Source of the DNA: Acutalibacteraceae bacterium
GTDB lineage: Bacteria; Bacillota; Clostridia; Oscillospirales; Acutalibacteraceae
Direction of reading: 5' to 3'
Assembly (NCBI GenBank): GCA_045602785.1
Contig: JAZSCF010000049.1
Span: 487 to 64,486 of the forward strand
DNA: 64,000 nt
Of this stretch, positions 5,003 to 20,189 are shown one piece after another (within the stretch, counting starts at the first letter, position 1; the number at the start of each line of letters is the position of its first letter). A model generated the notes under the pieces. It saw only the letters and a program-made list of their open reading frames with translations. It did not search any database and was not told the origin of the DNA. A program made the position numbers and the translations under genes.

Positions 5003-5845
5003 TTATTTTGGATAATAATGTTGACAAAATTTTTTAGGGCTTTCTCCCCAAAAACGCTTAAAGGTTTTGCTAAAGTAGTATTCATCGGGAAAATCTAAAG
5101 CTTCGGCAACCTCTCTAATATTATATTCGCCTGTAAGCAGTAGCTCAATGGCGCGTTGCGTTTTAAGATAATTTTTATATTCAATGGGTGTTTTGCCTGT
5201 AATTTCTTTAAACTTTTTTCTAAACGCGCTTTGACAAAGGCTGCAGCTTTCAGCCATAGCGGCTACATCAACCTTGGATAATGGGTTGTTTTCAATTTGG
5301 AAAATAGCGTTATAAATAGAGTCCCTTTTCTTAATTTCCTTTTTTATAGAGCTATTGAAAAGAACATATAATAGCTTTGTGAGCAGTGAAAGGCACATAA
5401 AATTAGAGCCGTAACTATGCTCAGAGCATAATTCGGTAATTTGATTAAAGTAGGAAAGATACATATCCCCATGGTCGTGCGCTATTACCGAAATATTGTT
5501 GGATATATTGATATTGGTATTATCTTTATTAGTAATTAAAAATAAAATTAAAACATGGTCAATGTTATTTTCATCTTCCCAAACCGAGTCGTATTCTACA
5601 TTGTGGGGAAGATATACAATATCACCCTTTGTAGCAGTAATTTTTCGGGTTTTAGTGCCTTGGTATTCAGTGAATTCGGTTTTGCCGTTTCTTACATAAA
5701 ACAATCGGCTATAAGGACGCATATTTTTTCTGCAAGAAAAGCTTTTTACCTGCTTTGTTTCCTTAGAGTCTTTGGCTAATATAAAGGAAATACTTATGTT
5801 TTCGTTAAAAATGTTAAAATCGTTGAACAATCCATAACACCTCAA
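5003..5845 (-). CDS. AraC family transcriptional regulator (cupin N-domain plus HTH), divergent from operon 1
   Basis: C-terminal AraC HTH (AFRKKFKEITGKTPIEYKNYLKTQRAIELL, FSKTFKRFWGESP). The start is a TTG in the ORF track and the N-terminus is uncertain. Confidence 0.8.
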   Translation of the reverse strand: MRCYGLFNDFNIFNENISISFILAKDSKETKQVKSFSCRKNMRPYSRLFYVRNGKTEFTEYQGTKTRKITATKGDIVYLPHNVEYDSVWEDENNIDHVLILFLITNKDNTNINISNNISVIAHDHGDMYLSYFNQITELCSEHSYGSNFMCLSLLTKLLYVLFNSSIKKEIKKRDSIYNAIFQIENNPLSKVDVAAMAESCSLCQSAFRKKFKEITGKTPIEYKNYLKTQRAIELLLTGEYNIREVAEALDFPDEYYFSKTFKRFWGESPKKFCQHYYPK

Positions 5846-5956
5846 TTCTTCTACTGTGTCATATTATACATTTTTTTAATTGATTTGTCTATGGTTAATT
5901 TCTTCAAAAATGATATATTTATATTAGAAAATTATTTTTGAAAGGCCGTGTGTTTT

Positions 5957-7225
5957 ATGAAACTTAATATTGGTATTGTTGGCTTTGGTGAGTTTTCTCG
6001 TACCTTTTTAGAGCTATTTTTACACCATCCTAATGTAGAAGCGGTAAAAGGTGCGGAAATTATGGATGACCGCCGCCAAGAGATTGCTAATCAGTTTGGA
6101 ATAACTATGTATTCATCGTTTGAAGAAATGCTCGAAAAAGACAAGGAACTTAATGCGGTTGCAATTTTTTCTCAAAGACATCAGCACGGTCCTATGGCGA
6201 TTGAAGCCTTAAAAGCAGGTAAGCACGTGTTCAGCGCCGTGCCTGTTGGCTGTACCGAAGAAGAAATTAAGGAAATTGTTCGTTTAGTAGAAGAAACGGG
6301 TCTTACTTATATGGCGGCTGAAACCTGCTATTATTTCCCTTGCGCAGTATTTTGCCGTGAAAAGTTTAAAACAGGCTATTTTGGTGAGTTTGTTTATGGC
6401 GAGAGCCAATATTATCATGATATTTCTGCTATGTTTGATTCATTCTCGGGTTCGGGTGGTAATGAATGGAAAAAGGTTGCAGGTGTTCCGCCTATGTATT
6501 ATTCAACCCACTCAATGTCTATGATGTTCTCTTCAATAAACGACCATCCTGTTTCAGTTACCTGCTTTGGTTATGAAGACAAAACAGGTGATGATATTTA
6601 CGGCGAAGGTAAAAACCATTGGGATAACCCATTCTCAAACGAAACTGCAATTTTCGAGATGTCTAAGGGTGGCTTTGCTAGAATAAACGAGTTTAGAAGA
6701 ATTGGTACCTTTAAACCTTCTTCTTACATAACAGGTCTTTACGGTAAGCTTGGCGCTTATGAAGGTAGCGGTATGAATCATTTTGTCATTCGTGGTGATG
6801 TAAATGAACACCCCGAAAGCGAAGATGTTAGTCACCTTATAAATGCTCAAAAATATGAAAGCGTAAAATCGCAAATAGACCAAAGTGAAGGTAGAATGAA
6901 TTATCTTAAATATCATACAGGCTATTCTGCTATTCATAATGTTGAGCGTTTGCCAAAAGAAATAGCACATTTAGAAAGTAAGTTTGGATATACACTTGAC
7001 GGGCATAATGGCACTCACGTATTCCTAGTTGATGACTTTGTGCGTGCAGTTTGTTCGAACCTTGTACCACCAAATAATATTTGGGATTCAGCCGTTTATG
7101 CTGTAGCAGGTATTACTGCGCATAATTCGGCTTTGCAGGGCGGTAAATCACTTCCTGTTCCGTTCTTTGGTAATGCGCCTGAAGGCTGGGAACAAAAGTG
7201 GGAAGAGGAATTAAAAAATAATTAA
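5957..7225 (+). CDS. Gfo/Idh/MocA family oxidoreductase (long C-terminal domain)
   Basis: IGIVGFGEFS Rossmann start and EKP-like block. ATG 5957 lies within ORF 5948..7225. Confidence 0.8.
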   Translation: MKLNIGIVGFGEFSRTFLELFLHHPNVEAVKGAEIMDDRRQEIANQFGITMYSSFEEMLEKDKELNAVAIFSQRHQHGPMAIEALKAGKHVFSAVPVGCTEEEIKEIVRLVEETGLTYMAAETCYYFPCAVFCREKFKTGYFGEFVYGESQYYHDISAMFDSFSGSGGNEWKKVAGVPPMYYSTHSMSMMFSSINDHPVSVTCFGYEDKTGDDIYGEGKNHWDNPFSNETAIFEMSKGGFARINEFRRIGTFKPSSYITGLYGKLGAYEGSGMNHFVIRGDVNEHPESEDVSHLINAQKYESVKSQIDQSEGRMNYLKYHTGYSAIHNVERLPKEIAHLESKFGYTLDGHNGTHVFLVDDFVRAVCSNLVPPNNIWDSAVYAVAGITAHNSALQGGKSLPVPFFGNAPEGWEQKWEEELKNN

Positions 7226-7244: not shown

Positions 7245-8030
7245 ATGAAAGTAAGCAGTTGTATTGATATGATGTTCGCAAATATGGATTTTAATGATAG
7301 AATTGAATCTGTCAAACAGTGCGGTCTGGATGGAATCGAGTTTTGGAAATGGACTAATAAGAATTTAGACGAGGTTATAGCGCTTAAAGATAAACACAAT
7401 TTAGGCTTTGCTGTATTTAATATTGATTCTACTGATGAAAAGCTTTCTTACGATCTTTCAAGGGGTATTTTAAATGCAGGTAGGGTAGAAGAGTTTTTAA
7501 AAGCTTTACAAGAAAGTATACCCGTATATAAAAGATTAAATGCATCGGCTATGATAGTGCTTGTTGGTGAAACCATAGCTGATATGCCATGTGAAGAACA
7601 AATTGAAAATGTTTATAAATGTCTTAAAGCAGCGGCACCTGTGGCTGAAGCAAACGGAATAATAATAGTGGTTGAACCGTTAAACTCTGTCGACCGCGAA
7701 AATTACTTTTTACCTTACGCTAAGGATCTTATGGATATACTTGACCGCGTAGACAGTAAAAATGTGAAAATGCTTTATGATATTTATCACCAAAATGTTA
7801 TGGGTGATTTTTCAATGGATTTCATTAAAGCTAATATTAATAGAATCGGTCATTTCCATGTTGCTGATTGCCCCGGTAGACACGAGCCAGGGACCGGTAA
7901 AGTTGATTATGTACCCATAATTGAAGAAATAAATAAAACTAATTATAGCGGTTTTATTGGTCTTGAATACAGAGCAACAAAACCCGACTGTGAAACTTTA
8001 GGTTTTTTGAAGGAGATAAAGAATGTTTAA
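7245..8030 (+). CDS. Hydroxypyruvate isomerase / inosose isomerase-like xylose-isomerase-fold TIM-barrel protein
   Basis: GLDGIEFW, VEPLNS.DRENYFL and IGHFHVADCPGRHEPGTG motifs are typical of the Hyi family. Confidence 0.7.
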   Translation: MKVSSCIDMMFANMDFNDRIESVKQCGLDGIEFWKWTNKNLDEVIALKDKHNLGFAVFNIDSTDEKLSYDLSRGILNAGRVEEFLKALQESIPVYKRLNASAMIVLVGETIADMPCEEQIENVYKCLKAAAPVAEANGIIIVVEPLNSVDRENYFLPYAKDLMDILDRVDSKNVKMLYDIYHQNVMGDFSMDFIKANINRIGHFHVADCPGRHEPGTGKVDYVPIIEEINKTNYSGFIGLEYRATKPDCETLGFLKEIKNV

Positions 8031-9096
8031 GGTTTGTATAATCGGTAGCGGTATGATAGCAAAAAGCGCTCACATACCCGCTTATAAAGAATATCCCGAA
8101 GATTTTTCAATAGTAGGTATATTTGATGTAAATAAGGAAGCTGCAAAAGAGGTTGCTAAAGAATTTGGTATTGAGAATGTATATACCGATGCTGAAACAA
8201 TGCTTAAAGAACAAAAGCCTGATTTGGTTTCGGTTTGTGCACCTAATATGTTCCATAAAACATACACATTGTTAGCGCTTAACTACGGTGCAAATGTTTT
8301 ATGTGAAAAGCCACTTGCTTTTACTTATGCGGATGCAAAAGAGATGTTTGATTTGGCTTCCGAAAAGGGCAAAACCCTTATGGCTTGCCAAAGCTTGCGT
8401 TTCTTACCTGAAAGATTAGCGGTATACGAACAGGTTAAAAATGGAAATGTTGGCGATGTTTACTATGCCGAGCTTTCAAGAATCCGCCGTAGAGGTATAC
8501 CCACTTGGGGTAAATTCCACTTAAAAGCGTTTAGCGGTGGCGGTGCACTTGTTGATATTGGTGTTCACGGTATAGATTCTGCTATTTGGCTTATGGGCAA
8601 CCCCGAACCACAAAGCGTTATCGCTAATATGAGCAAGGTTCACGCAAACGAACATGGCTCTGCCAAAAGCTCGGGCGCATTAAAGGATAATGTAACTGTT
8701 AATACTTTTGATCCTGAGCAAATGGATGTTGAATCTTTTTCAAGCGGTACAGTAAAATTCAAAAACGGCGCTGTGCTTTCGTTCAAGGTTTCTTGGGCAG
8801 CTAACTTGAAGGAAGAAAATAATATTGTTCTTTCAGGAAGCAACTGTGGTATTGATATGGAAAACCGCAAGATTTATTCAAATGCAGAAGATATTAATGA
8901 TTTAGCAGTTATTCCTAACGGCTTTAAGGATGAACCTTTTTATGGTCATTTTTGCATTGTTAAGAATATGTTAGATGTTTTAAAGGGTGTAGATGAACCG
9001 TTTATCAAACCCGAAGAAACACTTAATGTAACTGCAATACTTGAAGCGGCTTATAATTCGGCTGAGAAAGGCGAAGAGGTGGCTATTAATGTTTAG
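8023..9096 (+). CDS. Gfo/Idh/MocA family oxidoreductase
   Basis: VCIIGSGMIA Rossmann motif and CEKPLA motif. The start overlaps the preceding stop (ATGTTTAA). Confidence 0.85.
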   Translation: MFKVCIIGSGMIAKSAHIPAYKEYPEDFSIVGIFDVNKEAAKEVAKEFGIENVYTDAETMLKEQKPDLVSVCAPNMFHKTYTLLALNYGANVLCEKPLAFTYADAKEMFDLASEKGKTLMACQSLRFLPERLAVYEQVKNGNVGDVYYAELSRIRRRGIPTWGKFHLKAFSGGGALVDIGVHGIDSAIWLMGNPEPQSVIANMSKVHANEHGSAKSSGALKDNVTVNTFDPEQMDVESFSSGTVKFKNGAVLSFKVSWAANLKEENNIVLSGSNCGIDMENRKIYSNAEDINDLAVIPNGFKDEPFYGHFCIVKNMLDVLKGVDEPFIKPEETLNVTAILEAAYNSAEKGEEVAINV

Positions 9097-10186
9097 AGCA
9101 GTAATTATTGGTTTCGCACATATGCATGTTAATGAAATTGCAAAATATATTGATGAGTGTGAAGATTTTACACTTGTTGGTTTTGCAGATGTGCCTGCCG
9201 AAACCCCCGAAAAAACCGAAGCGAGATATACTCGTGCTTGGAATATTAAAAATAATGCAGAACTTTATAATATCACTCCACACGATGATTATAAAGCAAT
9301 GCTTGATGAGCTTAAACCCGATATTGCATTTATTCTTTGCGACAATGCTAATAAACCCGAGATTGTTGAAGAATGTGCTAAAAGGGGAGTTAATGTAAGC
9401 ATTGAAAAGCCTATGGCTGTAAGCTTAGAGGATGCGCTTAAGATTAAATCAAGTGTAGATAAATACGGCATTGAAGCAGTTGTAAACTGGCCTGTTATTT
9501 GGCGCCCGTTCTTACATAAACAAATTGCTGCGCTTGAAAGCGGTAAGTTTGGTAAGCTTATAAAAGCGTTTTATATTAACGGTCATACAGGTCCACTTGG
9601 TAAAGGCGCTAAGCATAGAGGCGTTACTGAAAAAGCACAGGAAATGACCGACCAAGAACGCGCATCTACTTGGTGGTATAAAAACGAAACAGGTGGCGGT
9701 GCATTTTTAGATATTGGCTGTTACGGTTGTTTCTTTAACGAATGGGTAAGGGATAACGATGATAAGCCGTTGTCGGTTATGGCATTCTCGGGCAATTATA
9801 ATCACCCTTATATGAACGCACCTGATAATATGGCAGGTATTATTGAATATAAAGATTCTTTTGGTGTTGTTGAAGGTACTTGGACTGTACCCCAGTCTTC
9901 TTTACCAAAGGGCCCTGTTTATATGTGCAGTGAAGGTGTTCTATTTTGCGATGAAAATATGGATGTAGTTGGTATGAATATTTATGGTGATAAGGTAGAA
10001 TTACCTGAATATGATATTCACCCTGCACTTAAGAATTTGCCTGACCATTATTCATATTGCAAAAAGACAGGTACACCACTATTAAAGACCGTAACTCTTG
10101 ATTTTAATATCCGCTTAATGCGACTTATTGATGCGGCTATGAAATCTGCTAAATCAGGTAAAAAAGAGATAGTTTGCGATGAATAA
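9089..10186 (+). CDS. Gfo/Idh/MocA family oxidoreductase (divergent)
   Basis: ATG 9089 (MFRAVIIGFAHMHV) overlaps the preceding stop (ATGTTTAG). Carries the SIEKPMA motif. The 9041 extension is unlikely. Confidence 0.75.
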   Translation: MFRAVIIGFAHMHVNEIAKYIDECEDFTLVGFADVPAETPEKTEARYTRAWNIKNNAELYNITPHDDYKAMLDELKPDIAFILCDNANKPEIVEECAKRGVNVSIEKPMAVSLEDALKIKSSVDKYGIEAVVNWPVIWRPFLHKQIAALESGKFGKLIKAFYINGHTGPLGKGAKHRGVTEKAQEMTDQERASTWWYKNETGGGAFLDIGCYGCFFNEWVRDNDDKPLSVMAFSGNYNHPYMNAPDNMAGIIEYKDSFGVVEGTWTVPQSSLPKGPVYMCSEGVLFCDENMDVVGMNIYGDKVELPEYDIHPALKNLPDHYSYCKKTGTPLLKTVTLDFNIRLMRLIDAAMKSAKSGKKEIVCDE

Positions 10187-10964
10187 AGCTGTGGTTGTAA
10201 ATATCCAAAGAGCTTCTGTACACGATGGCCCTGGGCTTCGTACTACTGTGTTTTTTAAAGGATGTCCTTTAAAATGCGCGTGGTGTCATAACCCCGAATC
10301 TATTGACCCTAAACCCCAAATTTTACACTATCCCGAAAAGTGCATTGGTTGCGGTTTATGTGAAGAAGGTTGCTTTTCGGGTGCTAAGGTTGTGTGTGGT
10401 AAGGAAATGACAGCAGAAGAAATATTTGCTGAAATTTTGCAAGATAAACCAAACTACGCTGGTAACGGCGGCGCTACCTTTTCGGGCGGTGAGCCGCTTA
10501 TTTACCCTAAAATTTTAAAAGAACTGATAACACTTTGCAAAAATAACGGAATTGGCACCGCTATTGAAACTTCGCTTTATCTTTTCGACCCGGAAATACT
10601 TAGTAGTGTTGATTTTGTTATGGCTGATTTTAAAATTTGGGATAACCACAAACACAAGCAATATACAGGTGTTAATAACGATATTATTAAGGAAAACTTT
10701 AAGCGGTTGGATGCACTTGGTACTCCTTTTATGGTTAGAACACCTATTATTCCTACAATTAACGATTCAGTTGATGAAATTGTAAAAATAAGAGATTTTA
10801 TAAAAGATTTTAAAAATATTGTGGATTATGAATTGTTACCATACCATTCACTTGGGGTGACAAAGCAAAAAGCTTTGGGAATTAGTGAAACGGTTTTCGA
10901 AATTCCCGAAAAAAGTAAAATGGAGTTGCTTAAGAGTTATGCTAACATTAAAGCAAAGAATTGA
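10179..10964 (+). CDS. Glycyl-radical enzyme activating protein (radical SAM)
   Basis: VHDGPGLRTTVFFKGCPLKCAWCHNPE (CxxxCxxC) plus a ferredoxin-like CIGCGLCEEGC and GGEPL. Confidence 0.9.
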   Translation: MNKAVVVNIQRASVHDGPGLRTTVFFKGCPLKCAWCHNPESIDPKPQILHYPEKCIGCGLCEEGCFSGAKVVCGKEMTAEEIFAEILQDKPNYAGNGGATFSGGEPLIYPKILKELITLCKNNGIGTAIETSLYLFDPEILSSVDFVMADFKIWDNHKHKQYTGVNNDIIKENFKRLDALGTPFMVRTPIIPTINDSVDEIVKIRDFIKDFKNIVDYELLPYHSLGVTKQKALGISETVFEIPEKSKMELLKSYANIKAKN

Positions 10965-13155
10965 TGCTATTCGTAAGACTAAGATAGACCATACACTAAT
11001 AAAGCGCGAACAAAACGGTTATACCGACCTTGATGATTTCGGCACAGTACCACTACCCGAAAATTATATAGTTAAGCCTTGGTATAACAGCGAAAACGGA
11101 AGTTTTTACGGGCTTGACGGTATGGCAGAAAACTTTTGTCGCGTAATGGATGCACACGCACCTTATGTGGACCCACTTGAGATGCTTTGTGGCAGATGGC
11201 GCGACATGCTTGTAAACTATCGCGGCGATATTCACTATATGCCTACTTGGAGAAAGGCACAACTTACTGAAGATGATTTTTCCGGTGTTACTGCTCAATG
11301 GAGTAAACGTTGGGATGAAAAGAGTTTTCCGTATGACCATTTAAAGCCTTTGCAAAAAAAATATAATATACAAACAGGTATTGATGGAGATGCCCATCTT
11401 GCTTGTGACTATACTATAGGCTTAAATTTAGGTTTTGGCGGTTTCCTTAGTAAAATAGAAAAGTACAGAAATATTAATCCCGACAAAAAGGATTTTTATG
11501 ATGCTGAGGAAAAGTGTGTTTTAGCTATTGTTCGTTTTATAGATAGACATATTGCTGAAATAGAAAAACAAATAGAGACTGAAACACGCCCCGAAATTAA
11601 GGAAAGCCTTGAAAAAATGCTTATTGTTAATAAAAACATAAGATTAGGCGCTCCTAAAACATTTTATGAAGCGTGTCAATGGGTAGCACATTTTAACTGT
11701 GCATCCCGTGTTTACACTCGCGATGGCGCAGGTTTTCAGCTTGATACCATACTTTTGCCGTATTATGAAAACGATGTTAAAAACGGCATTTTAGATGATG
11801 AAACGGCTAAGTTTTTAATCGCTAACCTTTTGCTTATTGACCCACATTATTATCAAATTTCGGGCGTGGACGTTGATGATAAGGATATAACAAATCATTT
11901 ATCTTACCTTATTCTTGAAGCGGCTGATATGATTGATATTTCCTGTAACTTAACCGTTCGTGTTCACGAAAACTGCGACAAAGCTTTCTTTGATAAGGCG
12001 GTTTATTACCTTTTGAAGAACAAAAACGGTTGGCCGCGTTTTTGTAGCGATAAAAATTTATGTGAAGGCTATATGAAAAACGGCATTTCTAAAGAGATTG
12101 CACGTAAGCGTATTGCTGTTGGTTGTAACTGGATGTGCGTTCCAGGAATAGAATTTCCTATGAACGACACTGTTAAAATTAACATTGCAAAGGTGCTTGA
12201 AAACGCTTTGGAAGATATGAAAGCAGAGCCTTTAAAGTCTACAAATAGACTTTTCGAGCTTTTTGAAGAGCATCTTAAAATAGCAACAGATGTAACTGCA
12301 CAAGGTATAAATCTTCATATAGACCATCAAGCAGAAGTAACACCCGAGCTTATTATGAATCTTATGATGGAGGATACACTCGAAAAAGGTCTTGATATTT
12401 CGCAGTGTGCAAAGCTTTATACAGTGGGCGTAGACGGTGCTGGGCTTGCCGTTGTTGCTGATAGCTTTGGTGCTTTGGAACTTCGCGTAGAAACTGAAAA
12501 GCTTCTTTCTTGGGATGAAGTTTACGAAAACCTACAAAACAATTTTGATGGTGTTAAGGGCGAGAGAACAAGACTTTTGCTTAATTCCACACCAAAGTAT
12601 TGCGGTGGTGATACTGTTTCGGATAAGTGGGCTAAAAAGATTACTGATATTTGGGTAAAAACAATTAAGGCTCAAGAAATGCCTGAGGGCAGACAGTTAG
12701 TTCCCGGTTGGTTTAGTTGGGCGCGTACTATTGAGTATGGTAAAGCAGTAGGTGCAACACCTAACGGCAGAAAAGCCTTTGAACCGATTTCACATGGCGC
12801 TAATCCAAATCCACATTTCAGAACAGACGGTGCGGTTACTGCGCAATCAAACGGTATTGCTGCAGTACAATGCGGTTACGGTAATACAGCACCATTGCAA
12901 ATTGAGTTTGACCCCAAGCTCGCTGATGACAGTAAGGGTGTTGAGGTTGTAGGTAACCTTGTTAAGAGCCATTTTGAACAGGGTGGTACACTAATAAACA
13001 TAAATGTTCTTGATACCGAAAAGCTTATGGAAGCACATAAAAACCCCGAAACACATCCCGATTTGGTTGTTCGTGTTACAGGCTTTACTGCTTATTTTGC
13101 AAGTTTGTCACCTGAATTTAGACAGCTTGTTGTTGAAAGATTTTTGACCGATTAG
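10939..13155 (+). CDS. Glycyl radical enzyme, PFL-like fold, divergent (738 aa)
   Basis: C-terminal glycyl radical motif VVRVTGFTAYF (Gly715), GATPNGR block and candidate Cys loop VGCNWMCVPG. ATG 10939 lies within ORF 10885..13155. Confidence 0.85.
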   Translation: MLTLKQRIDAIRKTKIDHTLIKREQNGYTDLDDFGTVPLPENYIVKPWYNSENGSFYGLDGMAENFCRVMDAHAPYVDPLEMLCGRWRDMLVNYRGDIHYMPTWRKAQLTEDDFSGVTAQWSKRWDEKSFPYDHLKPLQKKYNIQTGIDGDAHLACDYTIGLNLGFGGFLSKIEKYRNINPDKKDFYDAEEKCVLAIVRFIDRHIAEIEKQIETETRPEIKESLEKMLIVNKNIRLGAPKTFYEACQWVAHFNCASRVYTRDGAGFQLDTILLPYYENDVKNGILDDETAKFLIANLLLIDPHYYQISGVDVDDKDITNHLSYLILEAADMIDISCNLTVRVHENCDKAFFDKAVYYLLKNKNGWPRFCSDKNLCEGYMKNGISKEIARKRIAVGCNWMCVPGIEFPMNDTVKINIAKVLENALEDMKAEPLKSTNRLFELFEEHLKIATDVTAQGINLHIDHQAEVTPELIMNLMMEDTLEKGLDISQCAKLYTVGVDGAGLAVVADSFGALELRVETEKLLSWDEVYENLQNNFDGVKGERTRLLLNSTPKYCGGDTVSDKWAKKITDIWVKTIKAQEMPEGRQLVPGWFSWARTIEYGKAVGATPNGRKAFEPISHGANPNPHFRTDGAVTAQSNGIAAVQCGYGNTAPLQIEFDPKLADDSKGVEVVGNLVKSHFEQGGTLININVLDTEKLMEAHKNPETHPDLVVRVTGFTAYFASLSPEFRQLVVERFLTD

Positions 13156-13196: not shown

Positions 13197-14024
13197 TTAT
13201 ATTGTTTTTATTGAATTTCTATAAATAGATGGCGCCACACCATATTCACGAGAAAAAATATTGCAAAAATGATTAGGATTTTCTATTCCAATTTCATTTG
13301 TTATTTCAGCGATTGACATATCAGTAAATGCAAGAAGTTCTGCCGCTTTTGTAAGGCGGAATTTTTTTATATATTTGTGAAGTGTAAGACCCGAATGGTG
13401 TTGTAAAACATTACTTAAATAAAACGAATGATAACCGAGTGCGTTGGCAACATCATCGTTTGATTTAATAGTTTTATAGTTGTTGGAAATATAATTTATA
13501 ATTTCATTGTAAAGGTGATTACCTTTTTGGTTTTTATATTCAGCAAGCTTTAATAATGCACATTTTAAGTACGATTCGGCAATTTCGTTAGCGTATATTG
13601 TATTTTTTTTGTACTCCTTTTCGGTGTTGATTAAAATTTCTTCAATAAATTGTGCATTAGGAATTACAAATGCTTCACGAAATAGCTCAATTTCACATTC
13701 GTTCTGTGAGAAAATTCCTAATTCATTAACAAATTTGTTGGATTTTATGGGTGTTAAGAAGTTTTGTATATGTTTGTTTTGGTGTGATAAGTCGAAGTTT
13801 ATAACAATGAATTTTAGCGGATTATCGCTTGAAGATAAGGGATAATATTCTATTCCCGTTGGACAGTAGCAAAAAGAACCTCTTGTAAGCGGGTAACGAT
13901 CATTTGCAAGTAATATTTCTCCTTCACCATCGAGAATATAAAATATTCTTAAATCGTAAGCCTTGGTTGGAAACTTGTTTGGCAGACAATCAGTTTTAGC
14001 TAAATATCGTATAAATAAATCCAT
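13197..14024 (-). CDS. AraC family transcriptional regulator, divergent from operon 2
   Basis: Cupin-like N-domain and C-terminal HTH (LHKYIKKFRLTKAAELL, FCNIFSREYGVAPS). Confidence 0.85.
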   Translation of the reverse strand: MDLFIRYLAKTDCLPNKFPTKAYDLRIFYILDGEGEILLANDRYPLTRGSFCYCPTGIEYYPLSSSDNPLKFIVINFDLSHQNKHIQNFLTPIKSNKFVNELGIFSQNECEIELFREAFVIPNAQFIEEILINTEKEYKKNTIYANEIAESYLKCALLKLAEYKNQKGNHLYNEIINYISNNYKTIKSNDDVANALGYHSFYLSNVLQHHSGLTLHKYIKKFRLTKAAELLAFTDMSIAEITNEIGIENPNHFCNIFSREYGVAPSIYRNSIKTI

Positions 14025-14175: not shown

Positions 14176-15189
14176 ATGAAATATTTGGTTGGATTACAAG
14201 TTAATAACGATGCTCTTATATCTGAAATAATTAAAAATAAAGAATCTATTAGCGAAGTATATTTTTCTTGGGGAGATTTTCCTAATGGAAGAAGCACCCT
14301 TGATACTACCGGCAGTCTTACATTATTTGAAATGCAACAGCTTATGGTTTCTAATTTAAATAAACTAATAGCTTCAGGCATTGATTTTAATTTATTATTA
14401 AATGCAAACTGCTATGGTGCAAATAGTCAGTCAAAAAGTTTTTTTAATAAAATAGGTAACACTCTCGATTATATTAAAACAAATTTTGGTTTAAAAGCAG
14501 TTACCACAACTTCGCCCTTAATTGCAAAGTTTGTAAAGCAAAATTTTCCGCAGCTAGAGGTTAGGGCTTCTGTAAATATGGAAATTGGTACAACTATTGG
14601 TATGGATTACATAGCAGATTTATTTGATAGTTTTTATCTTAAACGTGAATATAATAGAAACTTACAAATTGTTACTAAAGCAAGAGAGTGGTGTAATGCA
14701 AACGGTAAAAAGCTTTACGGACTTGCCAATAGTGGTTGCTTGAATTTTTGTTCTACCCATATTTTTCATGATAATTTAGTAGCACATGAAAGCGAAATTG
14801 CGGAAAAGGATAATGGATATCAGTTTGTTGGACAATGTTGGGATTATTTAAAGAAAGCAGAAAAACAAGAAAAATGGCTTTCGATTACAAATTTTATTCG
14901 CCCTGAGGATGTTTATTTATACGATGGCTTATTTGACGGATTAAAGCTTGCAACAAGGGTTAATAAAAATCCTGCTAAAATCATTCAATCGTATTGTAAT
15001 TCATCTTATAACGGTGCGATAACCGATTTGCTTGAGCCCAATCATTCAGGGGTATTTTATCCAAATGTTATTGATAATAAATCGATTTCGAAAGATTTCG
15101 CGCAAACGGTTCTTAAATGTTCGAAAAAGTGTGATGAGTGTAATTATTGCGATCAAATACAAAAAAATGCTACAGTTGTTTTAGAATAG
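14176..15189 (+). CDS. U32-peptidase-family-like protein (putative Fe-S TIM-barrel enzyme) with C-terminal CxxxCxxCxxC
   Basis: By-eye colinearity with U32 blocks (EVYFSWGDFPNGRS; FNLLLNAN; TTTSPLIAKFVKQNFPQLEVRASVN; YLKREYN; LANSGCLNFCS). C-terminal Cys315/319/322/325. Confidence 0.4.
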   Translation: MKYLVGLQVNNDALISEIIKNKESISEVYFSWGDFPNGRSTLDTTGSLTLFEMQQLMVSNLNKLIASGIDFNLLLNANCYGANSQSKSFFNKIGNTLDYIKTNFGLKAVTTTSPLIAKFVKQNFPQLEVRASVNMEIGTTIGMDYIADLFDSFYLKREYNRNLQIVTKAREWCNANGKKLYGLANSGCLNFCSTHIFHDNLVAHESEIAEKDNGYQFVGQCWDYLKKAEKQEKWLSITNFIRPEDVYLYDGLFDGLKLATRVNKNPAKIIQSYCNSSYNGAITDLLEPNHSGVFYPNVIDNKSISKDFAQTVLKCSKKCDECNYCDQIQKNATVVLE

Positions 15190-15200
15190 GAGTTTAAATT

Positions 15201-16283
15201 ATGCTTAGTAGTAAATTAATCAAAGAAGCAGCGCTTGCTGCAGGTGCCGATGTTTGCGGTATCGCGCCTATCAGTAGAATGAAGGGTGCTCCTGATGAAA
15301 TGAATCCAATGTTTCTATTCCCCGAAGCCAAAAGTATGATAGGATTTGTTTTTCGTATTCCACGTGGTGTTCAAAGGGGGATTGAAGAAGGAACTCAATT
15401 TTATCAGTATCCCTCTATGGCGTATGGTGGCATAAACGAGATTTTTGCCCCTGCAGTACTTTATAGCGTTGGCAAGGTTATAGAAGATAATGGTTATGAG
15501 GCGTTTGTATATAGAAATACAGGAGCCAGAGGCTGTGTTTCCGATATGGACGGCAGCGAGGGTAATACTCTTTCGCCTGAAGAACAAATTGAAGTAAACG
15601 AAAATGCCAAGACCTCTACCGCACATCATAGGAATGTGCAATTTACTCGCGCGACTAGGGAAGATAATGTTCCACCTGATTTACAGTTTCAGTTTAGATT
15701 AGCGGCTGTTGCTTGCGGCCTTGGTGAAATTGGTTGGAGTAAAATGCTATTAACACCCGAATTTGGTCCTTTACAGCGTGTGGCATTTATTTTTACTGAT
15801 GCAGAATTCGATGAATATGATGAAATGTATAACGGTGAGTCACTTTGCCGTAAGTGCGGTGCATGTGTCAGAGAATGCCCGGGCGGTTGTATTCCGGCAA
15901 TCAATTCGGGTAAAAAAATTACTGTTCAAATTGAAGACAAAATTTCTGAGTGGGGTGACATAGATATGTGGCGTTGCTATGCCTTTTATACCCACGCGGG
16001 AAGATACTATAACCCCTTTGTTCCTAAAGAAGTTTGGGATAAGAACGAGAACGGTGCGCTTGACTTAATGGAAGGTGTTACCAATATTGCTAATGAACAG
16101 GAAATTATGAAGGTTTATACTGCGCTTCAAAAATATTTTCCAAGCTGGGTTGGATACAATATGGCTAAATGTGGTGGTTGTATTAGAGCTTGCGTTTCTA
16201 TGCTTGAGAAAAAAGGCGGTTGTATGGAAGGACGTTTTAAAGAACCGTTAAGAACGAAAAAGGCTTGGAAGTTGGACAGATGA
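15201..16283 (+). CDS. QueG / reductive-dehalogenase superfamily Fe-S protein, paralogue 1 (360 aa)
   Basis: N-terminus LIKEAALAAGADVCGIA, CGLGEIGWSKMLLTPEFGPLQR block, CRKCGACVRECP ferredoxin motif and second Cys cluster KCGGCIRAC. Confidence 0.7.
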   Translation: MLSSKLIKEAALAAGADVCGIAPISRMKGAPDEMNPMFLFPEAKSMIGFVFRIPRGVQRGIEEGTQFYQYPSMAYGGINEIFAPAVLYSVGKVIEDNGYEAFVYRNTGARGCVSDMDGSEGNTLSPEEQIEVNENAKTSTAHHRNVQFTRATREDNVPPDLQFQFRLAAVACGLGEIGWSKMLLTPEFGPLQRVAFIFTDAEFDEYDEMYNGESLCRKCGACVRECPGGCIPAINSGKKITVQIEDKISEWGDIDMWRCYAFYTHAGRYYNPFVPKEVWDKNENGALDLMEGVTNIANEQEIMKVYTALQKYFPSWVGYNMAKCGGCIRACVSMLEKKGGCMEGRFKEPLRTKKAWKLDR

Positions 16284-16624
16284 TTGACATATCGAATTTT
16301 TGCGGCAAAGATTTTAAGGTTGTAACCGAAGCGGAAAAATGGAAAATAGGTTTTTTAAGATATTCCGATAGATTTTCAAAGTTTACTGCATTGGAACGGC
16401 ATTTGTTAACTGATGAAGCTTTTATTTTGCTAAAAGGCAAAGCGGTTCTTTATATCGAAAACGAAAATGGTGTTATAGTTAAGTATAAAATGAAAAAGCT
16501 ACAGGTATACAATGTTCGTGAAAAAGTGTGGCATCATATAACAGTTAGCAAAAATGCAACCGTAATGGTTGTAGAAAACCAAAACACAAGTAAGGAAAAT
16601 ACAGAAAGGCGGAGTCTAATATGA
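16280..16624 (+). CDS. Small cupin-fold protein (ERH motif, ureidoglycolate-lyase-like)
   Basis: ATG 16280 overlaps the paralogue 1 stop (ATGA). ALERHLLTDEAFILLKG and a beta-rich profile. Its stop overlaps the next start. Confidence 0.4.
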   Translation: MIDISNFCGKDFKVVTEAEKWKIGFLRYSDRFSKFTALERHLLTDEAFILLKGKAVLYIENENGVIVKYKMKKLQVYNVREKVWHHITVSKNATVMVVENQNTSKENTERRSLI

Positions 16625-17523
16625 ATCTTCTTACTAAAGAACAAATTAAAATAAAGGCTAAAGAATTAGGAGCCAGTGTATGTGGTGTTGGAAAGGTTTA
16701 TGAAGAGACTAACCCGCAGCGTGACCCTAAAATGATTTTACCAAATGCCAAATGTATTATTGGCTTTGGTTTTGCAGTACCAAAGGGATTATATCTTACA
16801 ATGGATATAAAATCTCAATACTATTCTTACACTTCAATGGGAGTTAAATATATCGACGAAGAAATGGCGGAGATATTTTTACTTAAAATAGGTGGTATAA
16901 TTGAAAACGAAGGTTACGATGCATGTCTTCAAAAAGCAATACCAAATCTTCGTATAAAGGGAGATACGACAACTAACCCAGAGGTAATGGATACATATGA
17001 GCTTATCCATGCACAAGCGGTAGAAGTCGGCAAGCCTGTACCTGACGTGATTATTGATTTTGGCAAGGCTGCCAAAGCTTGTGGCATTGGTGAAATGGGA
17101 CTTAGCGGTAAAATTATAAATAAAGATTATGGTCCTTTTATGCGTTACTGTTTTATTATTACGGATATGCCCTTAGAACCCGATGAAATAAAAAACGAAG
17201 TGATTTGTGATAATTGCGGTGAATGCATAAAGGCTTGCCCCGGTAATGCTATAAGTGATAACGGACTTGATACTTGGCAATGCGCTGTATACTATAAAGG
17301 TGCACATAAATCTAATCCCTTTATTACAGATGAATTTTTAAAGGGTAATCCCGAACGTGAAGCAATTCTTAACGGCGAAAAGCGTTTTGATGTTGAGAGC
17401 GCAAGAGAAATCTACAAAGAAATGAATTTCTTACCTAATACGCAATGGGGTTATGCACCTTGCCTTTGCGGTAAAAAATGCGATGTTGCTTGTTATAGGC
17501 ATTTGAAAGGGGAGTTGAAGTAA
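16621..17523 (+). CDS. QueG / reductive-dehalogenase superfamily Fe-S protein, paralogue 2 (300 aa)
   Basis: AKELGASVCGVG, CGIGEMGLSGKIINKDYGPFMRY, CDNCGECIKACPGNAIS and CLCGKKCDVAC. Confidence 0.7.
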   Translation: MNLLTKEQIKIKAKELGASVCGVGKVYEETNPQRDPKMILPNAKCIIGFGFAVPKGLYLTMDIKSQYYSYTSMGVKYIDEEMAEIFLLKIGGIIENEGYDACLQKAIPNLRIKGDTTTNPEVMDTYELIHAQAVEVGKPVPDVIIDFGKAAKACGIGEMGLSGKIINKDYGPFMRYCFIITDMPLEPDEIKNEVICDNCGECIKACPGNAISDNGLDTWQCAVYYKGAHKSNPFITDEFLKGNPEREAILNGEKRFDVESAREIYKEMNFLPNTQWGYAPCLCGKKCDVACYRHLKGELK

Positions 17524-18458
17524 TGAAACGTGAAATCATTAAGATTGCGAAAGAAAACTTTGCGGATATTGTTGGATTTGCAAGTGCTAAAAGTTTTGAC
17601 GAAAACGACCCTATTTTTAAAATATTTCCGGAAACTAAAACTGTTATTGGTCTAGCTTTCAGAGTTTTAAGAGGTGCATATAGAGGTACAGAAGAAGGAA
17701 CTACATATTATCAATATACAACTATGGCAGTTGAAAATATGGAAGAAACCATAATGCCAATGGCACAACTAAGAATTGCAAACTTTATTGAAAGTAAAGG
17801 CTATATTGCTGTTCCGCAACGACGCCATCAACAAATTATGGCAGAAGAAAATAGCACTAATCCCGAAGTTGCTTATGATGCGATTTTTAGAAACAAAACT
17901 GCCGAGAATCAAATGAATTTTGTTGACGCTGCTGTAAAATGCGGCATTGGTGAAAAGGGGCTTTCGGGTGCGATTTTAACAGATGATTATGGCCCTATGG
18001 TTAGATATTGCTTTATTCTAACCAATTTGGTAATTGAGCCTGATTCAGTTAAAGAAGCGCATCTTTGCGATAATTGTGGAAAATGTGTTATGGCGTGTCC
18101 TGGTAAAGCAATTAGTGAAAACGGCGTGCTCGACGCTTGGCAATGCGCAGTTTATTATAATGGTGCTAATGGTACTAAAAATCCTTTTATGCCACCGGAT
18201 GCTTTTTCTAAATTAGATAACCGACTTGAAATTATTGCCGGTGAAGCAAGAGTTACACCTGAAACCGCTAAGAAAATCCTTGATGAAATTTTCTTTTATC
18301 CGCCGGCACAGCATGCATATCAATGTTCAATATGTGGCAGAGCGTGCGATACTGCTTGTTATATCCATTTGGAAGAAAAGGGTGTTTTAAACAAAAAATT
18401 CAAACGTCCTTTTAGAACACGGGATGAATGGAAATTTGATATAACTGATTTTGAATAA
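17523..18458 (+). CDS. QueG / reductive-dehalogenase superfamily Fe-S protein, paralogue 3 (311 aa)
   Basis: CGIGEKGLSGAILTDDYGPMVRY, CDNCGKCVMACPGKAIS and CSICGRACDTAC. The start overlaps the paralogue 2 stop by 1 nt. Confidence 0.7.
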   Translation: MKREIIKIAKENFADIVGFASAKSFDENDPIFKIFPETKTVIGLAFRVLRGAYRGTEEGTTYYQYTTMAVENMEETIMPMAQLRIANFIESKGYIAVPQRRHQQIMAEENSTNPEVAYDAIFRNKTAENQMNFVDAAVKCGIGEKGLSGAILTDDYGPMVRYCFILTNLVIEPDSVKEAHLCDNCGKCVMACPGKAISENGVLDAWQCAVYYNGANGTKNPFMPPDAFSKLDNRLEIIAGEARVTPETAKKILDEIFFYPPAQHAYQCSICGRACDTACYIHLEEKGVLNKKFKRPFRTRDEWKFDITDFE

Positions 18459-18479
18459 TTATTTAAATAGGTGTTTAAT

Positions 18480-20189
18480 ATGAACATTAGAGTAGTGAAA
18501 AAAGATAATACTATTATCGAACTGCAACCCGAAATTACTATCAATAAAGAAAAAACTATAGTCAAACTATCAAAGGATAAAATTCCAACTGATATTAAAT
18601 ACGTTGATTTTCTTTATGATTTTTTTGTTGCAAATATTGGTGATAAAGGCTATTTTGTACTACCCTTAAACTGCGAACAGGGGGTATGCGTAACATATTT
18701 TAAAAATAGAAACGATACCGAGTTTGCTACTAATTTTTCTCATATATGCTGCTATGGTTATAAAAAAGAAAACGGTGGTATTATGGGTATAATAACAGGC
18801 TGCAGAGAGTATTATGCTGTTGTCGCAGGTGTTAAGGATGGCATATATTATGCATATCCACGATTTATGCTTGATGGTTTTAAAGCCTATGAAGATATTG
18901 TGATAGAATACTACAACCTTGAAAACGGCGATTATTCCGAAATGGCAAGTCTTTATAGAAAAATACAGTTAGAGCGTTACGGCTGTATACCTTTGAGCGA
19001 AAGGGTGAAAAATAACGAAATACTTGCAAAGGCCGCTAAAAGTATAGCAGTACGTGTGCGCCAAGGATGGAAGCCGGCACCGAGTGCTGTTGAAAATCAA
19101 ACACTTGAAACTGAACCCGAAATGTATGTCGCTTGTGATTTTGATAGAACAACACAGCTTGTTGAAGAATTTTCAAAGCAGGGTATAGACGGTGCTGAAT
19201 TTTGTCTTGTTGGTTGGAGTCGTATGGGTCACGATGGCAGGTATCCGCAAATATTTCCTGTAGAGCCATTACTCGGTGGTGAAGAAAAGCTTAAAGAACT
19301 TATTAGTAAGACAAAATCGCTTGGATATAATATTGTTGGTCACGATAATGCTTCGGATGCTTATACAGTATCAGAGCTTTGGGATGAAGAATATCTTTTA
19401 AAGAATAATGACGGAAGTCTACATAAAATTGATATATGGTCAAGCGGTAGAGCACATAAAATTTGTCCAAAGCGTTATTATGAGCTTTTCGGTAAGGAAC
19501 ACTTGACACAATTAAAAGAGCTTGGCTTTGAGGGTGTACACTATATTGATGTAATAACAATTCTTTCTTTGTTAGAATGTCACGATAAAAACCACCCACT
19601 TACCCGTAAAGAAACAGCCGAGTGGTATAATAGACTTATGCAAGAGTCAAAAGAAACCTTTGGCGGTATTTCTTCTGAATCGGGTTATGATTATGCGGCG
19701 GCAGTACTCGATTTTGCGCTATATACATCTTTTTTCTTATCAGGTGTAGGGCTGCCTGAAATTTGTGATAAACCAATTCCATTTTGGCAAATTGTATTCC
19801 ATGGTATTATTCTTTATAATCCCGGTACATTTACGTTGAACTATGCTGCAAAGGGTACAGAAAACCGTTTAAGGTATTTCGAATACGGCGGTAGACCGCT
19901 TGTATGCGTATATGCTAACTTTGCTAACGGTAAAGATTGGATGGGACTTGAAGACTTCCGTTGTGATACTGATGCCGAAATGCAAGAGTCTGTTTCAAAG
20001 ATAAAAACTATGTATAACGATTATAAATGGATGGAAGAAGTCCGTTTTGCCTTTATAGAAAGCCATAATGAAGTTAGCGATAATGTTTTTGAAATTATGT
20101 ATTCTAACGGCATAAAAATCACTGTTGACTATAATACTGCAACCGTCACTATGAACGGAAATGGCATAGAAAAGGTTTTAAAAATTTAA
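18480..20189 (+). CDS. Hypothetical 569-aa cytoplasmic protein, possibly a glycoside-hydrolase-like TIM barrel (DUF5696-like from memory)
   Basis: SD AGGTG then ATG 18480. No signal peptide. The segment GAEFCLVGWSRMGHDGRYPQIFPVEPLLGGEEKLKELI..LGYNIVGHDN resembles GH-type (beta/alpha)8 proteins. Confidence 0.3.
   Translation: MNIRVVKKDNTIIELQPEITINKEKTIVKLSKDKIPTDIKYVDFLYDFFVANIGDKGYFVLPLNCEQGVCVTYFKNRNDTEFATNFSHICCYGYKKENGGIMGIITGCREYYAVVAGVKDGIYYAYPRFMLDGFKAYEDIVIEYYNLENGDYSEMASLYRKIQLERYGCIPLSERVKNNEILAKAAKSIAVRVRQGWKPAPSAVENQTLETEPEMYVACDFDRTTQLVEEFSKQGIDGAEFCLVGWSRMGHDGRYPQIFPVEPLLGGEEKLKELISKTKSLGYNIVGHDNASDAYTVSELWDEEYLLKNNDGSLHKIDIWSSGRAHKICPKRYYELFGKEHLTQLKELGFEGVHYIDVITILSLLECHDKNHPLTRKETAEWYNRLMQESKETFGGISSESGYDYAAAVLDFALYTSFFLSGVGLPEICDKPIPFWQIVFHGIILYNPGTFTLNYAAKGTENRLRYFEYGGRPLVCVYANFANGKDWMGLEDFRCDTDAEMQESVSKIKTMYNDYKWMEEVRFAFIESHNEVSDNVFEIMYSNGIKITVDYNTATVTMNGNGIEKVLKI

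Follow-up and report, generated by a model that had tools for sequence, protein, structure and literature searches.

A glycyl radical enzyme with a Cys-x-Trp loop

The DNA considered here is a 64,000-nucleotide stretch (the window) of contig JAZSCF010000049.1 from an Acutalibacteraceae bacterium. At 10939..13155 of its forward strand lies the gene of a 738-residue glycyl radical enzyme (GRE), identified with Pfam, NCBIfam, an AlphaFold2 (AF2) model and Foldseek; the protein is an intact member of an uncharacterised clade, the Cys-x-Trp GREs, with a probably sugar-related reaction. (The clade is defined in this work and corresponds to no curated family.) The open reading frame as listed opens at GTG 10885. 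ATG 10939, which yields the 738-residue form, is taken as the start because homologues of 735-744 residues cover 100% of that form. This start overlaps by 26 nucleotides the 3' end of the gene for a radical SAM activating enzyme (AE, the activase; 10179..10964, forward strand), which scores 269.8 bits against TIGR02494 (cut-off 174) and carries a CX3CX2C motif at residues 29-36 and one ferredoxin-type CX2CX2CX3C motif at residues 55-65. The GRE itself scores 288 bits for the PFL-like Pfam domain and 55.7 bits for the Gly_radical domain (cut-off 22.2). It is an intact, activase-partnered, oxygen-sensitive enzyme of this superfamily.

The distinguishing feature is the Cys loop G395-C396-N397-W398-M399-C400-V401-P402-G403 at 12121..12147 (forward strand; codons ggt tgt aac tgg atg tgc gtt cca gga, numbered from ATG 10939). 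A preliminary description of this DNA had singled out this loop as the probable thiyl-radical loop, lacking the expected Glu two residues past the catalytic Cys, and had paired it with an intact glycyl motif. Both parts are borne out. The codons read as described, and conservation in homologues shows that the loop is no chance feature: no position of R391-G403 varies among 16 aligned sequences, CNWM is present in 120/120 homologue clusters at ≥75% identity, and C396 is invariant in all 106 sequences of a further alignment (A2). HMMER aligns the loop without gaps to those of the solved enzymes PFL2 (2f3o), PflD (8yjo), glycerol dehydratase (GDH; 1r8w) and HypD (6vxc), with C396 opposite their catalytic Cys. 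On these alignments C396 is the predicted thiyl-radical cysteine, and W398 stands at the position of the Glu of Cys-x-Glu (CXE) loops. The preliminary description allowed that a canonical loop might lie elsewhere; the protein contains 15 Cys in total, and no C-x-E motif was found anywhere in its 738 residues. The Gly loop V711-R-V-T-G715-F-T-A-Y719 (13069..13095, forward strand) contains the glycyl radical site, G715, which is likewise invariant in A2.

The CXE Glu forms hydrogen bonds and usually deprotonates the substrate hydroxyl, giving a ketyl radical that expels a neighbouring group (PMC13450708). It is essential in HypD, of which the E436Q variant is inactive (PMC7077986), and all characterised GRE eliminases and isomerases keep it (PMC13450708). 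The same review, of June 2026, assigns CXE loops to eliminases and isomerases, Cys-Cys loops to PFL and TdcE, and Gln at position +2 to PAD; by its account the use of a pair of loop cysteines, adjacent ones, is confined to PFL and TdcE, and no Cys-x-Trp enzyme is described in it (PMC13450708).

The fold is that of a GRE. (AF2 run on the single sequence gave a pLDDT of 39.9; run on A2 it gave a pLDDT of 92.9 and a pTM of 0.93.) The model has the ten-stranded GRE barrel, and Foldseek matches it to more than 40 GRE chains with TM scores of 0.78-0.85 at only ~20% identity. The matches include propanediol dehydratase (PD), GDH, PflD, YbiW, HypD, HplG and CutC, with TM scores of 0.82-0.85 for PD, GDH, PflD and YbiW.

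Assignment to any named family fails. The score against the PFL2-3 subfamily model TIGR01774 is 271.5 bits (cut-off 678.2); the HypD, HpfG, HpsG and CutC equivalog models give 150-202 bits against cut-offs of at least 1000, and the curated NCBIfam models for HypD, HpfG, HpsG, CutC, IAD, HPAD and PFL together span 74-211 bits against ~1000. PFL and TdcE are excluded by a score of 73.7 bits against TIGR01255 (cut-off 994) and by the lack of adjacent cysteines. The arylacetate decarboxylase models are as distant (indoleacetate decarboxylase, 114 bits against 1100; HPAD large subunit, 102 against 1150), and resemblance to the X-succinate synthases TutD and MasD amounts to only 45-52 bits, with no X-succinate synthase small-subunit gene in the conserved neighbourhood at 80 loci. 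The CXE class is excluded by Trp398 in place of its Glu, although the active-site His of that class (GDH His164, HypD His160) is present as H153 in the PFL2, PflD and GDH alignments. What the protein does contain is every element of the signature used here to define the Cys-x-Trp clade: a G-C-x-W loop with P-G-x-E-[YF]-x3-D after it, Glu470, Asn622 and RVTG in the Gly loop. The suggestion of a different class in the preliminary description thus holds: alignments and tree place the enzyme in a separate, uncharacterised group distinct from the known eliminases, isomerases, PFLs and X-succinate synthases (PMC13450708).

The Cys-x-Trp clade and its predicted active site

An exhaustive search for homologues, covering 1.84 billion representatives, found that full-length relatives down to ~27% identity keep G-C-x-W (as CHW, CQW, CFW, CGW and CPW); C-x-E loops first appear among the matches at ~30% identity. 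In a FastTree phylogeny of 111 sequences, which covers sampled top hits only and is rooted on the canonical PFL of the host genome, 38/38 C-x-W sequences fall in a single clade (support 1.0) that contains nothing but C-x-W members, and the sister of this clade is a small C-x-H/C-x-Q group. A metagenome scan seeded with the most distant subclade added 73 environmental enzymes, all of them C-x-W. By loop and tree, Cys-x-Trp marks out a deep, monophyletic and uncharacterised GRE clade and is no quirk of a single gene. The shortness of the protein, from which the preliminary description drew a hint of different catalysis, is real but is shared by the clade (677-775 residues) and has no clear mechanistic meaning. 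No published description of the clade was found in the literature searched, many subscription papers being outside its reach.

Comparison of 24 non-redundant C-x-W sequences with 57 C-x-E representatives picks out residues that go with the Trp. W398 is present in 100% of the former and 0% of the latter, E470 in 100% and 5%, E405 in 92% and 19%, Thr714 of the Gly loop in 92% and 12%, and N622 (Ser in the CXE enzymes) in 88% and 2%. R257, present in 83% of the C-x-W set, lies within a clade-specific indel; residues 255-265 align ambiguously to solved GREs. The H153 position is His in 88% of the C-x-W sequences and 93% of the CXE representatives, and D410 is invariant within the clade.

A map of the predicted pocket was drawn from HMMER pairwise alignments at ~20% identity, with residue roles taken from published analyses (PMC7077986, PMC13450708). 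It places H153 at GDH His164 and HypD His160, Y304 at GDH Phe333 and HypD Ser334, Y305 at GDH Tyr339 and HypD Phe340, D410 at GDH Asp447, K413 at HypD Tyr450, F592 at GDH Tyr640, and W594 at HypD Thr645. (Asp447, Tyr339 and Tyr640 of GDH reportedly contact glycerol in the GDH structure.) The pocket thus appears to have kept the His and the Asp, to have lost the Glu, and to be rich in aromatic residues.

The second loop cysteine, Cys400, is less firmly fixed. Position +4 relative to C396 is Cys in 119/120 close clusters and Ala in 1/120, and Cys recurs there in many distant members of the clade (GCQWYC, GCFWYC and CNWFC loops), but Ala, Ser, Asn, Gly or Val occupies it in intermediate lineages, which are relatives of 36-53% identity. 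A small side chain seems to be selected at this position. Judged by this variation, Cys400 is a trait of the subfamily and not a catalytic residue of the whole clade, and it may have a role specific to the subfamily. The weight that the preliminary description placed on two cysteines does not survive: +4 varies within the clade and the known Cys pairs, those of PFL and TdcE, are adjacent, so two-Cys chemistry is not supported as a clade-wide feature.

The operon and its counterparts in other genomes

The genes preceding the activase on the forward strand point to sugar-ring oxidation. Directly upstream lies gfoC (9041..10186, likely start ATG 9089), which by Pfam encodes a divergent Gfo/Idh/MocA oxidoreductase, GFO_C. 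Its sole PDB matches are weak and to GFOR (E 1e-5); it keeps EKP and a GFOR-like D-x-G-x-Y, while G-F-A-H-M-H replaces the GxGxxG dinucleotide motif, and GFO_C may be a holder of tightly bound cofactor or a non-redox partner. GFO_B (8023..9096) is a DgpA-like glycoside 3-dehydrogenase, matching PDB entries 9m3d (E 3.6e-56) and 7xr9 (E 3.1e-51) over its full length. DgpA belongs to the Gfo/Idh/MocA enzymes and oxidises the sugar part of C- and O-glycosides at C3, with a 3-oxo-sugar as hydride acceptor (PMC11239390, PMC9939296). An inositol (iol) pathway was considered and rejected: the IolG, IolE and IolO models score far under their cut-offs and GFO_B is much closer to DgpA. Next upstream is a xylose-isomerase-like TIM barrel (7245..8030; Pfam AP_endonuc_2), resembling Hyi/OtnI-type keto-sugar isomerases and epimerases; it scores 175 bits, under the cut-off, for NCBIfam hydroxypyruvate isomerase, and its PDB matches are 3ngf, YgbM and the 3-keto-D-glucoside 4-epimerase YcjR. 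The first gene, gfoA (5948..7225), specifies a 425-residue Gfo/Idh/MocA oxidoreductase by Pfam, with its best PDB match (E 6e-14) to 2ixa, an NAD-dependent GH109 alpha-N-acetylgalactosaminidase. A divergent AraC-family regulator (5003..5845, reverse strand; Pfam HTH_18, HTH_AraC) precedes the operon. In one bovine metatranscriptome library, contigs of 158-248 nucleotides match gfoA, the TIM-barrel gene, the activase gene and the GRE gene at 95-99%; this is a weak hint that the operon is expressed, DNA carry-over being possible and such contigs unable to prove a transcript.

The CNW subfamily to which the GRE belongs was found in at least 193 species-level genomes by a scan of species-representative genomes. 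The carriers are nearly all uncultured Clostridia of human, ruminant and other animal guts, from the Acutalibacteraceae, Oscillospiraceae and Lachnospiraceae (Faecalimonas, Tyzzerella, Acetatifactor). The nearest relatives come from an Acutalibacteraceae faecal metagenome-assembled genome (MAG; 94% identity) and a goat-colon MAG (92%); a cultured carrier is Qingrenia yutianensis (76%).

Gene neighbourhoods were compared at 80 species-level loci. The activase gene is adjacent to the GRE gene in 68/80, and gfoC, directly upstream of the AE-GRE pair in 61/80, is the gene most tightly linked to both; a gfoB-type gene is present in 55/80. Together gfoB, gfoC, the activase gene and the GRE gene make up the core at about 60 of the 80 loci. 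Two operon types recur. Type 1, that of the window, reads AraC (recurrently upstream), gfoA, TIM, gfoB, gfoC, AE, GRE; type 2 reads AraC, gfoE, gfoD, gfoB, gfoC, AE, GRE, often followed by an FAD oxidoreductase gene. The gfoB of type 2 also encodes a full-length DgpA homologue (E 5.5e-55), and the TIM-barrel gene is an optional part of the conserved core. In gut and rumen Clostridia the GRE has two genetically fixed partners, a DgpA-like glycoside 3-dehydrogenase and a further Gfo/Idh/MocA enzyme of divergent sequence. Directly 3' of the GRE gene, other genomes encode lyxose/mannose isomerase with PfkB kinase and aldose epimerase, or SDR, GH2, GH5-like, GH42-like, GH88 and NanA-like lyase proteins. 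No paper tying a GRE to DgpA or to Gfo/Idh/MocA enzymes was found in the literature searched, which left out many subscription papers.

The distant subclade, with mostly GCQWYC loops, has a different setting. It was met on 74 metagenome contigs (habitats not recorded). Its gene order is GRE then AE, and nearby genes specify GH29 alpha-L-fucosidases (at 24 loci), sugar transporters of the MFS and ABC types and AraC/LacI regulators; URO-D-like proteins are also encoded at these loci (L087-L166). This subclade may be a fucose- or fucoside-linked radical enzyme. The theme common to the whole clade is free or glycosidic neutral sugars.

Some arrangements depart from the two operon types. A variant module without Gfo genes (loci L080:1976-6946 and L084:8222-13192) comprises a BNR sialidase-like gene, activase, CNW GRE and a lyase of the DHDPS/NanA family. 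Two gfoB-gfoC-(AE)-GRE modules occur within 22 kb at locus L045 and on two contigs of one MAG in each of two cases (L042/L060 and L025/L084); paralogous specificities are likely in view of such double modules. WbsX-like (PF14307) proteins precede the module at L062, L069 and L076, one of them with a CBM_4_9 carbohydrate-binding domain. One Acutalibacteraceae MAG encodes, 138 nucleotides downstream of the CNW GRE, a further GRE of canonical PFL type (L015:12361-14538; 747 bits to PFL-like). The 2.18-Mb host MAG of the window itself encodes six PFL-like GREs, of which five lie on other contigs: one is a canonical PFL (ACCVS loop, RVSGY), and four have the unusual loops TTCAE, AACWE (with a RIWGW Gly loop), SACCT and GGCTE.

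Downstream of the GRE gene lies a convergent AraC/cupin regulator gene (13197..14024, reverse strand; Pfam), which separates the GRE operon from an adjoining operon at 14176-20189 of U32-like, triple QueG-RdhA-like, cupin and 569-residue TIM-like genes. The arrangement of the regulator is repeated at loci L008, L053 and L079. The U32/QueG-like operon accompanies the GRE operon in 5/80 loci, downstream at those three and upstream at L063 and L071; its varying orientation and side suggest a functional link between the two operons.

Possible reaction and relation to known systems

The GRE probably catalyses an undescribed anaerobic step in sugar breakdown, because it is encoded beside sugar-ring dehydrogenases. 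In its more definite form, to which an even chance is assigned, this interpretation holds that the enzyme performs a radical bond cleavage, most likely of C-O and less so of C-C, on a neutral, unphosphorylated sugar or glycoside ring within an oxidise-cleave-reduce pathway. The C396 thiyl radical would abstract a ring hydrogen. If a dehydrogenase had already installed a carbonyl, abstraction at the neighbouring CH-OH would generate a stabilised, acidic semidione-type radical able to fragment without a dedicated base; alternatively, the base may have been relocated to E405, E470 or D410, with H153 as the acid. Either the carbonyl or the relocated acid/base residues would make the loop Glu dispensable, and a clade with a fixed Trp must indeed gain the deprotonation step otherwise or not need it. 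Trp398, with Tyr304, Tyr305, Phe592 and Trp594, could serve as an aromatic stacking platform for a pyranose-type ring, and the remaining oxidoreductases and the TIM-barrel isomerase would turn the product back into an ordinary sugar. The bond broken might be a ring ether (as for YbiW and PflD), an O-alkyl ether, a C-C bond or an unactivated C-OH, among which sequence alone cannot choose. The rigid gfoB-gfoC-AE-GRE order favours the carbonyl in the gut subfamily, and the fucosidase-linked subclade without dehydrogenases favours the relocated base as the general solution.

Several observations weigh against this interpretation. No Gfo/Idh/MocA gene stands beside the distant C-x-W subclade at the metagenome loci examined, and a pre-installed carbonyl cannot be the general cause of the loss of the Glu. 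The GRE step might precede or follow those of the dehydrogenases, and among the 80 loci the operon has no fixed transporter or kinase. D410 is not specific to the clade, the Asp being shared by GDH, PflD and PFL2. The pocket map rests on alignments at ~20% identity, and E405, E470 and R257 are only putative active-site residues.

A bolder extension, put forward tentatively, regards the Cys-x-Trp GREs as radical sugar lyases of a new functional class. These would act on a keto-sugar or glycoside prepared by a DgpA-type 3-dehydrogenase and break a bond, in the ring or to a substituent, that lies beyond the ionic (E1cB) TIM-barrel lyases, a Trp platform and a relocated acid/base pair replacing the CXE Glu. 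The candidates would here be a 1,5-anhydro sugar ether, an O-methyl ether, a C-C bond and an unactivated C-OH. If true, gut and rumen Clostridia would break down recalcitrant dietary sugars by an anaerobic route not seen before, and a fucoside-linked sister route would exist, which the proposal places in sediments.

The order of events might also be reversed. The GRE would then be a conventional ketyl-type eliminase or isomerase with a moved base, acting before the Gfo/Idh/MocA enzymes on the diol of a sugar or polyol not yet oxidised (a deoxy-sugar, a cyclitol or a 1,5-anhydro-alditol, for instance, in the manner of GDH, PD, YbiW and PflD), with Glu405, Glu470 or Asp410 deprotonating the hydroxyl; the Gfo/Idh/MocA enzymes would process the keto or deoxy product. 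This is rather unlikely, yet it accords with PFL2, PflD, GDH, PD and YbiW being the closest solved relatives in sequence and fold, with the retention of His153 and Asp410, with the conserved acidic residues E405 and E470 that are the clade's own, and with the fucosidase-linked subclade, which shares the loop and lacks dehydrogenase partners. It is opposed by the absence of any characterised eliminase or isomerase without the CXE Glu (PMC13450708) and by the tight gene order in gut genomes, which suggests that the dehydrogenases supply the GRE with its substrate or work as its partners; moreover, E405 and E470 are only putatively placed in the pocket. That the enzyme decarboxylates or otherwise transforms an acidic sugar, be it a uronate, an aldonate or something like a sialic acid, is improbable. 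Such an enzyme would resemble the arylacetate decarboxylases, PAD too having no Glu and Gln at +2; Arg257 (conserved in the clade) and Arg261 (conserved in the subfamily) could bind a carboxylate, the sister group has C-x-H or C-x-Q loops, and a few loci have a GH88, BNR sialidase-like or NanA-like (DHDPS family) lyase gene beside the GRE. Most contexts are, however, those of neutral sugars (DgpA-like dehydrogenase, mutarotase, mannose/lyxose isomerase, fructokinase-type PfkB kinase, GH2, GH29), and likeness to HPAD and IAD is far weaker than to the eliminases.

Still less probable is that Cys396 and Cys400 work as a pair, either by handing the radical over as in PFL, the thiyl adding to a carbonyl with C-C cleavage as the outcome, or as hydrogen donors at opposite faces in an epimerisation. 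The near-constancy of the +4 Cys in close clusters, its return in the distant GCQWYC, GCFWYC and CNWFC loops, and a keto-sugar context that could supply the carbonyl for attack would suit such a pair. Against it stand the Ala in one close cluster and the Ala, Ser, Gly, Asn or Val at +4 in many lineages, including relatives of 44-53% identity; the confinement of known two-Cys chemistry to the adjacent cysteines of PFL and TdcE (PMC13450708); and the lack of any conserved CoA-dependent or acyl-handling gene nearby. That the protein is catalytically dead or purely structural can almost be dismissed: it has lost a residue that is essential in its relatives, but the replacing Trp is itself invariant, as are the motifs around Gly715 and Cys396, an overlapping gene encodes a dedicated activase whose score exceeds the family cut-off, and 75-99% identity is maintained over more than 120 clusters and 193 species.

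A whole clade with Trp in place of the Glu points to a different catalytic solution and to an unknown substrate class. GRE reactions are hard anaerobic chemistry that affects host health, through formation of trimethylamine, p-cresol, skatole and H2S. Solving a Cys-x-Trp GRE would add a reaction type to this repertoire and fill a gap in anaerobic carbohydrate and glycoside catabolism, and the fixed pairing with a DgpA-like enzyme makes gfoB-gfoC-AE-GRE a concrete four-gene module.

Among solved enzymes, the best PDB match by sequence is PFL2 of Archaeoglobus fulgidus (2f3o; E 9.6e-51), itself of unknown function and with a GCVE loop. The best structural matches are the 1,2-eliminases GDH (1r8w, B12-independent) and PD (5i2g). 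GDH gives the sole full-length HMMER alignment (residues 149-733), in which its His164 and Asp447 correspond to H153 and D410, and its Glu435 to Trp398. The GRE is unlike GDH and PD in its aromatic pocket positions (Y304, Y305, F592, W594) and in having no microcompartment or aldehyde dehydrogenase context. YbiW and PflD (PDB 8id7, 8id0, 8yjo) are GRE isomerases that open the rings of 1,5-anhydroglucitol-6-phosphate and 1,5-anhydromannitol-6-phosphate. They share the fold (TM 0.81-0.85), the catalytic Cys, the glycyl motif and the equivalents of H153 and D410, and their substrates, too, are sugar rings; by sequence PflD ranks second among the matches (E 9e-50). On the other hand, identity is only ~19-22%, they keep the CXE Glu, which deprotonates the C2-OH (PMC13450708), they take phosphorylated compounds, and phosphotransferase system (PTS) and aldolase genes, with no Gfo/Idh/MocA dehydrogenases, are present in their operons. 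PFL and TdcE, of the same superfamily, also have two loop cysteines, but Cys418 and Cys419 of PFL are adjacent, in contrast to the i, i+4 spacing seen here, where the second is dispensable in the clade.

The operon finds its parallel outside the superfamily. DgpA with DgpB-C, YcjS/YcjR, BT2156-2160 and the levoglucosan enzyme Lgd follow the same oxidise-transform-reduce logic; GFO_B is a full-length homologue of DgpA, and the TIM-barrel gene of the operon resembles the keto-sugar isomerases and epimerases of 3-keto-glycoside pathways. Those pathways break the bond by means of metal-dependent TIM-barrel lyases, whereas the conserved core described here has a GRE instead.

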